This document shows, in pieces, positions 25,483 to 29,835 of a stretch of 64,000 nucleotides of DNA. Below the pieces are notes generated by a model. That model made no database searches. It was not told the origin of the DNA and saw only the letters and a program-made list of their open reading frames with translations. Position 1 is the stretch's first letter. Each line of letters opens with the position of its first letter. The translations under genes and the position numbers were made by a program. The DNA is taken from assembly GCF_055900595.2 (NCBI RefSeq), contig NZ_CM148325.1. The stretch is one strand, 5' to 3'.

Positions 25483-25889
25483 GTGAAAAGGTGGTGTTCA
25501 GTCAACTGAGCCGTAAATTTATTGATGAGAACGATGCTACGCCCGCCGAGGCGCAGCAGGTGGTCTATTACAGCCTGGCGATTGGTCACCACCTTGGGGT
25601 TATCGATTGCCTGGAAGCCGCGCTCACCTGCCCGTGGGATGAATATCTGGCATGGATTGCCACTCTGGAGGCGGGCAGTGAAGCCCGCCGTAAAATGGAA
25701 GGCGTGCCGAAATATGGTGAGATCGTTATCGACATTAACCATGTGCCGATGCTGGCCAACGCATTCGATAAAGCCCGGGCAACGCAAACTTCGCAGCAGA
25801 AAGAATGGAGTACCATGCTGTTAAGTATGCTGCATGATATTTATCAGGAAAATGCCATCTATTTGATGGTGAGGAGACTGCGTGACTGA
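25479..25889 (+). CDS. hycH: formate hydrogenlyase maturation protein HycH
   Basis: 136 aa, conserved position. Confidence 0.92.
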
Positions 25890-26352
25890 CGTTTTACTCT
25901 GTGTTGGCAATAGCATGATGGGCGATGATGGCGCAGGTCCGCTGCTGGCGGAAAAGTGCGCCGCCGCGCCGAAAGGTAACTGGGTGGTGATTGACGGCGG
26001 TAGCGCACCGGAAAACGACATTGTCGCCATCCGTGAACTGCGCCCTACGCGACTGCTGATTGTCGACGCCACTGATATGGGGCTAAACCCCGGCGAGATC
26101 CGCATCATCGACCCGGATGACATCGCCGAGATGTTTATGATGACTACCCATAACATGCCGCTGAACTACCTTATCGACCAGTTAAAAGAAGACATTGGCG
26201 AAGTGATTTTCCTCGGCATCCAGCCGGATATCGTCGGTTTTTACTACCCGATGACCCAGCCGATTAAAGACGCCGTAGAAACCGTTTATCAACGACTTGA
26301 AGGCTGGGAAGGGAATGGTGGATTTGCGCAGTTAGCGGTGGAAGAAGAGTAG
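25882..26352 (+). CDS. hycI: hydrogenase 3 maturation endopeptidase HycI
   Basis: 156 aa, conserved position. Confidence 0.93.
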   Translation: MTDVLLCVGNSMMGDDGAGPLLAEKCAAAPKGNWVVIDGGSAPENDIVAIRELRPTRLLIVDATDMGLNPGEIRIIDPDDIAEMFMMTTHNMPLNYLIDQLKEDIGEVIFLGIQPDIVGFYYPMTQPIKDAVETVYQRLEGWEGNGGFAQLAVEEE

Positions 26353-26376
26353 TTTTTCAGTAAGGAATTCAGGGAA

Positions 26377-27150
26377 TTGAAAATCAGAACAGGGATGTGC
26401 GCTTTTTTATTTTGCTTAGTGCTTCCTGCGCAGGCTACCAGCTTTACCGAATATCTGCCAATGAGTGACAGCGAATACGCGCAAAAGCGGGCGCTGAAAC
26501 CTCTCCTGACTATGCCTTATTATACCGAGCAAACCTGGCATTTTAGAAAAGTGGGCGTTGCTGGCGTGACGCTTGAGAAGATGCCAAATGAAGAGGATTA
26601 CTGGCAATTAACTGCTAAAGACCGCGCCGGTAAATCCTGGAAGGTGCCTGTGGGTATGCTGGCAAATATGGCGGGCAAAGGGCAACTCTATCGCGCCGAT
26701 CTGGATCGTAACGGCATTCAGGATCTGGTTATCTGGTTACCAAGTGCTGGTAATGGTCTGGCTCCTTATGCACATTTAATCCTTATGACGTTCACGCGCG
26801 ATGGTCGTCCCTGTGTCTTTGAACCCTGGGGATTCTACACCGCAAGCAAAACTGGCGTAGATGATTTGCTGGATTTGCAAGGCAATGGCCACACACAATT
26901 GCTGGATATGCAGTTTAATTCTGGTTACTGGATAACCAGTCTGTATCAGGTAAAAGACGCCAAATGGCAACGTGTTCACGGCTGGTTTGGCAAGTTAAGC
27001 TATCCCGCGCTCACGCGTTTCACTTATACCCCCAACCGTAAACTCGTCCTCAAACCCATTGCCGGGCGCGACCCGCAAACGGAAGATCTGGCGTTGACCC
27101 AGCGTTGCTTGATAACAGAGGATATGCTTGATGGGGTGAATCAGCTCTGA
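26377..27150 (+). CDS. hypothetical secreted protein with FG-GAP/VCBS-like DxDxNG motifs (start may be ATG at 26395)
   Basis: 257 aa ORF; signal-peptide-like N-terminus (CAFLFCLVLPAQA); motifs DLDRNGIQDLV and DLQGNGHTQLLD; lies between hycI and a REP pair. Confidence 0.6.
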   Translation: MKIRTGMCAFLFCLVLPAQATSFTEYLPMSDSEYAQKRALKPLLTMPYYTEQTWHFRKVGVAGVTLEKMPNEEDYWQLTAKDRAGKSWKVPVGMLANMAGKGQLYRADLDRNGIQDLVIWLPSAGNGLAPYAHLILMTFTRDGRPCVFEPWGFYTASKTGVDDLLDLQGNGHTQLLDMQFNSGYWITSLYQVKDAKWQRVHGWFGKLSYPALTRFTYTPNRKLVLKPIAGRDPQTEDLALTQRCLITEDMLDGVNQL

Positions 27151-27159
27151 TGCCAAACG

Positions 27160-27250
27160 CCAGATTGCCCGATGCGCTGCGCTTATCGGGCCTACATGTC
27201 GCACGAACTATGTAGGCCGGATAAGGCGTTCACGCCGCATCCGGCACGTT
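27160..27250. repeat. BIME (pair of inverted REP elements)
   Basis: gcccgatgcgctgcgcttatcgggcctaca ... tgtaggccggataaggcgttcacgccgcatccggca. Confidence 0.8.
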
Positions 27251-27253
27251 TGC

Positions 27254-29835
<2,582 letters not shown>

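Follow-up and report, generated by a model that had tools for sequence, protein, structure and literature searches.

Escherichia coli K-12 is the reference for gene function in E. coli, and genes that have been deleted there stay "hypothetical" though thousands of strains carry them. The interval downstream of hycI, the last named gene of the formate hydrogenlyase (FHL; hyc) operon, raises this problem. The window analyzed here, a stretch of 64,000 nucleotides from contig NZ_CM148325.1 (assembly GCF_055900595.2), contains between hycI and a pair of repetitive extragenic palindromic (REP) elements a 257-codon open reading frame (ORF) with a TTG start, at positions 26377 to 27150 of the plus strand. 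An earlier sequence-only reading had placed the ORF at exactly these coordinates. What is this gene, why is it absent from K-12, and what might its product do? In this study, we show that the gene is genuine, that the 3' end of the hyc operon is its ancestral place in Escherichia, Salmonella, Phytobacter, and Klebsiella spallanzanii, and that it has been lost repeatedly, including in K-12. The best overall explanation, which we regard as probable, is an ancestral exported calcium-loop binding protein that is read through from the hyc operon and was lost in K-12. The gene represents a modest annotation gap and not a new kind of system. The new elements are the K-12 deletion scar of an ancestral gene, a corrected start codon, and the placement of the product in a sizeable uncurated family with FG-GAP/VCBS-type repeats, for which the nearest solved analogues appear to be periplasmic hydrolase inhibitors. 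It is a clear example of an ancestral, selected gene, with a product predicted to be exported, located where one of the best-studied operons of the species ends.

An ancestral gene deleted in K-12

In strain MG1655, hycI and ascB are separated by 158 bp with the REP pair retained, in good agreement with the spacing of ~160 bp that the sequence-only reading had given. Alignment with the window showed that K-12 keeps ATCAGGACAGGGATG, 15 nt that end at an internal ATG of the ORF, and the final ~30 nt of the ORF (TTCTTGATGGGGTGAACCAGCTCTGA) together with the REP pair. Approximately 725 bp are gone between the kept ends, plus 16 nt around the TTG start. By blastn, the match of the window to K-12 runs to position 26373 and resumes at 27115. 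Because both ends of the ORF remain, the K-12 interval is a deletion scar and not an ancestral absence. The arrangement in the window (ORF, bacterial interspersed mosaic element [BIME] formed by the REP pair, and ascB) is the state from which K-12 derives. The gene had been proposed to be either lineage-specific or lost in K-12; the scar and the presence of the gene at the same place in relatives establish the loss and dispose of lineage specificity. At this site, K-12 has the deletion and no annotated ORF. A different, independent deletion, in which the first ~70 nt are kept, was found in strain HS-02.

Downstream of hycI, the gene is found in E. coli, E. whittamii, E. albertii, Salmonella, Phytobacter, and K. 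spallanzanii. Its location between hycI and either asc or hydN is also seen in E. whittamii, another Escherichia species, E. albertii, Phytobacter diazotrophicus, and K. spallanzanii. In Salmonella, the gap between hycI and the gene is 27 nt, and hydN-hypF come next after the gene. In K. spallanzanii, the gene is surrounded by symE and parDE genes and is separated from hycI by a symE gene on the opposite strand. A profile scan of contigs with a closer alignment returned only 8 loci, mostly of Escherichia; the taxonomic breadth given here is taken from the search of representative sequences described below, not from that scan.

The ORF is intact in all five divergent E. coli alleles sampled and in the Salmonella and Klebsiella genes. 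The ratio of nonsynonymous to synonymous divergence (dN/dS, Nei-Gojobori method) was 0.13-0.27 for every pair, including the pairs with saturated dS, so coding potential is conserved across strains. The same method gave 0.00-0.08 for hycI. The gene is constrained and coding, and approximately 10 times more permissive to amino acid change than hycI. The E. coli alleles diverge by 5-15% at the DNA level. Part of this divergence is not particular to the gene: between the window (25882-26352) and four other E. coli loci (L009-L012), dS of hycI reaches 0.37 with almost no amino acid change. A hycI dS of 0.37 is far above the usual within-species level. The raised synonymous divergence is partly regional, common to hycI, and partly the result of mosaicism. 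The window allele is saturated in dS against L009 and L010 in codons ~121-180. Loci L009 and L010 have near-identical hycI genes (dS 0.019) and a divergent downstream gene (dS 0.33); therefore, recombination breakpoints lie at the end of the hyc operon. A sliding-window scan for positive selection found no dN/dS above 1, with a maximum of ~0.9 in codons ~51-80, where substitutions are few.

Of 5426 complete E. coli genomes, 2299 match the gene at least in part and 1461 have at least 80% of it; a K-12-like hycI/ascB junction was present in 2704, about half. The window allele is rare, with a match of at least 99% in only 8 genomes. In sequence type 131 (ST131), a stump of 61 codons remains; a higA-like gene comes next, and there is no asc operon. 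In the E. albertii type strain NBRC 107761 (L019 6001-6767), tblastn returned two segments in different frames with a frameshift near codon 80; judged from the nucleotide sequence, this copy is likely a pseudogene. Other E. albertii database entries are full length (251 aa).

Start codon, predicted export signal, and calcium-type loops

The gene is already annotated, without function, in thousands of genomes, and its existence is not new. The RefSeq entry WP_032303647.1 is a "hypothetical protein", and UniProt B7LED0 (E. coli 55989) and the Salmonella entries are named "Periplasmic or exported protein". These orthologues are the same gene at the same locus (E. coli, 85-100% identical; Salmonella, 70%); the RefSeq and UniProt entries give no function and, apart from the start codon, do not differ in substance from the gene described here. 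A literature search by locus and neighbor-gene names found nothing on the gene after hycI. The Prokaryotic Genome Annotation Pipeline (PGAP) starts the RefSeq protein at ATG 26395, six codons after the TTG. In an alignment of hycI-ORF junctions, TTG (Escherichia) or GTG (Salmonella and Phytobacter) followed by AAA or AAG is kept in register across genera, and ATG 26395 is not present in Salmonella or Phytobacter. The TTG start has AAGGA 10 nt upstream and supplies the basic residues K2 and R4 of the signal peptide. The only purine-rich stretch before ATG 26395 abuts the ATG without a spacer. ATG 26395 was rejected as the start, as it offers no basic n-region, lacks a Shine-Dalgarno sequence at a proper distance, and is not kept across genera. 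The TTG coordinates are preferable because of the conserved start, the spaced AAGGA, and the basic n-region residues. The PGAP choice cuts the basic n-region off the signal peptide.

The sequence-only reading had noted a signal-peptide-like N-terminus, and the three expected regions are indeed present: the N-terminus reads MKIRTG / MCAFLFCLVLP / AQA|TS, with a basic n-region, a hydrophobic core, and an AxA c-region. The predicted Sec signal peptide is MKIRTGMCAFLFCLVLPAQA (residues 1-20), with cleavage after AQA. The orthologues all preserve this arrangement (Salmonella, ...ARALA|TG; Klebsiella, ...ANALA|TS; Leminorella, ...PVRA|AF). In the AlphaFold model, the signal peptide is a detached helix of residues 2-18. 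A lipoprotein was considered and rejected, since the sequence has no L-[AS]-[GA]-C lipobox. The conserved signal peptide with its AxA site predicts export to the periplasm.

Two DxDxNG loops had been claimed for the protein. The first is real: DLDRNGIQDLV (residues 108-118) contains a true DxDxNG motif, and conservation of D108, L109, D110, G113, and D116 is 90% or more in an alignment of 71 family members. The second, in DLQGNGHTQLLD (residues 166-177), reads DxQxNG and so does not fit the motif; it is nevertheless homologous to a DxDxDGxxE loop of the family. The family consensus of this loop is DLDxDGxAE, and the E. coli/Salmonella form has the amides Q168, N170, and Q174 at three acidic positions. 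An hhalign comparison of the loop 1 and loop 2 segments (P 7.7e-5 over 14 columns) identified them as an internal repeat. Going by these motifs, the mature protein may be stabilized by one calcium ion.

The description of the protein as FG-GAP/VCBS-like holds as a resemblance. The E. coli protein had no Pfam match even at E ≤ 10; scans against Pfam, NCBIfam, and PADLOC returned nothing, as did phmmer against the PDB sequences. Its relatives do match: FG-GAP_3 (PF13517) was found in 5 of 71 relatives at E ≤ 1e-3 and in 26 at E ≤ 0.1, and FG-GAP (PF01839) in 1 and 9 of the 71 at the same thresholds. UniProt names for relatives include "FG-GAP repeat" and "VCBS repeat-containing protein". All matches of the family profile to the PDB were below threshold; the best (E ~0.15) was to the FG-GAP calcium loops of integrin alpha-V, where loop 1 is aligned. 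Membership in FG-GAP/VCBS is weak and transitive, some of the relatives matching and the E. coli protein staying below every threshold. Like FG-GAP/VCBS proteins (PF01839, PF13517; integrin alpha blades), the protein is all-beta and has the DxDxNGxxD(L/I/V) hairpin loop twice between beta-strands. Unlike them, it has approximately two blade-like repeats in a 235-residue domain and does not form a closed propeller of seven blades. No FG or GAP consensus motif was seen, although no search aimed at one was made.

A phmmer search, exhaustive over 1.84 billion representatives, returned 231 clusters (50% identity) at E ≤ 1e-3, and this family has no Pfam or NCBIfam model. Most clusters are 330-360 residues long, with a C-terminal extension of ~100 residues that is not in the enterobacterial form. 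In the 71-sequence alignment, P28, G80, W88, D108, L109, D110, G113, D116, G127, F139, P145, D166, W185, Y190, and P210 are near-invariant. Because the conserved residues are loop aspartates, glycines, prolines, and aromatics, with no obvious catalytic set, a binding module is favored over an enzyme. AlphaFold2 with the same alignment gave a confident all-beta model (predicted local distance difference test [pLDDT] 93.3; predicted template modeling score [pTM] 0.88) of ~15 beta-strands after the N-terminal helix. Foldseek against AFDB50 recovered the orthologues named "Periplasmic or exported protein" and the relatives named FG-GAP/VCBS. The long form, modeled for the Leminorella protein (355 aa; pLDDT 90.9), had no match at E ≤ 1e-3 in a Foldseek search of the PDB, which revealed no close solved structure and no function for the C-terminal domain; the weak leaders were integrin and PL11 lyase propellers and CarG. 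On these models, the fold class, a partial FG-GAP-like propeller, appears reasonably secure.

Candidate roles of the protein

An exported, calcium-loop-bearing FG-GAP-like binding protein, ancestral at this locus and lost in K-12, is well supported as a prediction. It consists of a conserved, predicted Sec-type signal peptide and an all-beta domain of ~235 residues with two FG-GAP/VCBS-type repeats, and the mature protein, of ~26 kDa, would be a calcium-stabilized binding module in the periplasm. The ORF starts 24 nt downstream of the hycI stop at 26352, and a scan of this gap found no promoter-like or terminator-like site. A sigma-70 promoter of its own in the 24-nt gap was rejected, as nothing promoter-like lies there. 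Because only 24-27 nt and no such site separate hycI and the gene, the protein is proposed to be translated from hyc transcripts, induced by formate and FhlA, that read through into the gene; it would then be made during fermentative growth. The REP pair lies directly 3' of the ORF and folds into stable hairpins (-48.3 kcal/mol, z -3.7); it is likely the 3' end of the transcript. It also has sub-threshold matches to the model of the REP-derived naRNA4.

The most specific candidate role is that of a periplasmic inhibitor of an incoming cell-wall hydrolase, like PliI and X-Tfi XAC2610; an exposed loop would bind and block a cell-wall-degrading enzyme that enters the periplasm from outside (a lysozyme-type muramidase or the effector of a competitor). 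This is the likeliest specific mechanism, but we consider it rather unlikely in itself. XAC2610, PliI-Ah, and Tsi1 have a common beta-propeller-like topology, and all block peptidoglycan hydrolases by an inserted loop (PMC10933484). XAC2610 (PDB 4qtq) is the immunity protein to XAC2609, a muramidase effector of the Xanthomonas type IV secretion system, and Tsi1 is a type VI secretion system immunity protein of related topology. By model comparison, PliI and X-Tfi XAC2610 appear to be the nearest solved structural analogues. XAC2610 is also among the matches of the sequence profile, at E 1.2, and one relative matches Pfam PliI at E 0.027. Alleles differ most at positions within predicted loops between strands (residues 71-80, 94-102, 121-133, and 140-152), and the variable loop 140-142 adjoins the conserved G143-R144-P145. 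Known lysozyme inhibitors are usually encoded by stand-alone genes. Homologues of the present gene stand alone in unrelated contexts (Leminorella, a Zoogloeaceae metagenome-assembled genome [MAG], a locus flanked by fructose phosphotransferase system and arn-type genes, and metagenomic contigs), and no recurrent partner gene was seen in the neighborhoods of the distant homologues examined.

Several observations weigh against inhibition and, in part, against the broader account. PliI (Aeromonas hydrophila I-type lysozyme inhibitor; PDB 3od9, 4pj2) is 14% identical and roughly half the size; Foldseek does not recover the similarity, and PliI is not among the best 50 Foldseek PDB matches of the long-form model. 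At the sequence level, neither XAC2610 nor PliI comes near a significant match. A cognate hydrolase was not found beside any homologue examined, the neighbors being hycI, ascB, higBA, hydN, symE/parDE, and, in the distant homologues, unrelated genes. The dN/dS scan exceeds 1 in no window, hence an arms race is not demonstrated, and the raised synonymous divergence is regional, being common to hycI. Co-transcription with hyc cannot be universal because of the opposite-strand symE in K. spallanzanii. All three of export, calcium binding, and expression are predictions. A more ambitious form of the idea, namely an undescribed family of stand-alone periplasmic cell-wall-hydrolase inhibitors, distantly akin to PliI/X-Tfi, with arms-race alleles and an enteric form wired to the fermentative hyc operon, is improbable. 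If it were true, the protein would be made in the anaerobic gut, facing host lysozyme and the muramidase effectors of competitors, and the mosaic, loop-variable alleles and the presence/absence polymorphism would reflect an arms race.

The blades might bind glycan and not an enzyme, as in a lectin-like or polysaccharide-binding periplasmic protein with peptidoglycan, a capsule or lipopolysaccharide precursor, or a plant beta-glucoside polymer as ligand. This is a poor prospect: none of the structural scores rises above noise (Foldseek E ≥ 0.03, TM ~0.2), which makes them as weak as those for the inhibitor, and no sugar-binding motif was identified. The proximity of a beta-glucoside operon lends little, because asc is not beside the gene in Salmonella, E. 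albertii, or E. whittamii, and the linkage is therefore incidental. Position is also the argument for a tenth component or accessory factor of FHL/hydrogenase-3, as the gene lies 24-27 nt after hycI without a terminator in Escherichia and Salmonella and its position is conserved in six species. Against this, the FHL complex of K-12 is fully active in the absence of the gene, and hydrogenase-3 catalysis and maturation take place in the cytoplasm, whereas the protein has an export signal. The gene is not present wherever the hyc operon is, being absent from K-12 and approximately half of the E. coli genomes; most family members are unlinked to hyc genes, and in K. spallanzanii the opposite-strand gene intervenes. 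A role in hydrogenase-3 is very unlikely.

The pattern of loss could also mean that the gene is a decaying relic, with a former function now dispensable in enterics, that is lost without consequence and of which the intact copies are merely not yet broken. The hycI/ascB junction of about half of the complete E. coli genomes, with at least two independent deletions, is what a relic would leave, and the ST131 stump, the frameshifted E. albertii type-strain copy, and many truncated Salmonella and E. coli database entries fit as well. So do the lack of the ~100-residue C-terminal domain in the enterobacterial form and the degenerate second calcium loop. However, dN/dS stays at 0.13-0.27 throughout Escherichia, Salmonella, and Klebsiella with dS saturated, and the signal peptide and the non-ATG start are conserved. 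Full-length alleles dominate the protein clusters (1238, 1120, 425, and 208 members versus tens for fragments). Decay is an improbable account of such a gene, and an exported binding protein is preferred. Should that protein inhibit hydrolases, it would be a fourth structural type of lysozyme/effector defense in enterics and would tie envelope defense to fermentative physiology. If it is not an inhibitor, the smaller value lies in the corrected start, the documented K-12 scar, and the description of a variable interval (gene, higBA, and asc) beside hyc.

Feature coordinates and the variable interval beside hyc

The features of the locus are listed in Table 1.

Table 1. Positions of the ORF, its sequence features, and its neighbors in the window; the last row refers to other E. 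coli loci.
Feature	Position	Strand	Basis or remark
hycI	25882..26352	+	Last named gene of the hyc (formate hydrogenlyase) operon; upstream neighbor
Shine-Dalgarno-like TAAGGA	26361..26366	+	10 nt upstream of the TTG start; read from sequence
Coding sequence, predicted exported FG-GAP/VCBS-like protein, 257 aa, TTG start	26377..27150	+	Stop included; conserved start column, dN/dS 0.13-0.27, AlphaFold pLDDT 93.3
Predicted Sec signal peptide, residues 1-20	26377..26436	+	By inspection; cleavage after AQA
Stretch missing in K-12 MG1655 (internal deletion)	26398..27121	+	Three-way alignment and blastn
Loop 1, DLDRNGIQD, residues 108-116	26698..26724	+	Canonical DxDxNGxxD calcium-binding-type loop; family conservation, integrin alignment
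Loop 2, DLQGNGHTQ, residues 166-174	26872..26898	+	Degenerate copy of loop 1; hhalign, family consensus
REP pair (BIME)	27167..27246	.	Between the ORF and ascB; read from sequence; retained in K-12
ascB (6-phospho-beta-glucosidase)	27254..28678	-	Convergent downstream neighbor; end coordinate from the RefSeq annotation of an identical strain
Variable interval, ORF stop to ascB/hydN	L011 2436-3163; L010 2437-3684; L009 2345-2764; L002 3212-4160		Other E. coli

The hycI-ascB/hydN interval is variable among E. coli: strains differ in whether they carry the asc operon and an opposite-strand gene for a hypothetical protein of 140 residues. Arrangements in strains other than those described above are hycI-ORF-higB-higA-ascB, hycI-ORF-higA-ascB, or hycI-ORF-higBA-hypothetical. 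The higA(B) cassette is present as a single copy per genome in 2509 genomes; 1092 genomes have the higB-higA toxin-antitoxin pair, and ~1400 others have higA as an orphan. Three database proteins of ~200 aa (P0040, P0044, and P0045), one of them named "ygjM", are gene calls that fuse the first ~55 residues to a HigA-like helix-turn-helix antitoxin; these fusions reflect the ST131-type truncation junction. The arrangement hycI-ORF-higA-ascB also occurs in JAIJJM010000690.1 (L016, 1647 bp), which is labeled as a Collinsella MAG. Its flanking proteins are 96-99% identical to those of E. coli, and the contig almost certainly represents E. coli contamination of an Actinomycetota MAG.

Outside E. 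coli, the same interval in K. spallanzanii contains two symE genes and parDE. In P. diazotrophicus (L017 5900-6000), a REP-like GC-rich palindromic element separates hycI from the gene, with a gap of ~100 nt; this element may shield the gene from transcription of the hyc operon. In the P0050 contigs (JGI 3300078620 and 3300041965), a homologue overlaps a LuxR-type response regulator gene by ~20 nt, and a Reg_prop/HATPase sensor kinase of 1034 residues comes next. This possible operon link to a response regulator and sensor kinase was seen in one metagenomic lineage only, and not in the other contexts examined.
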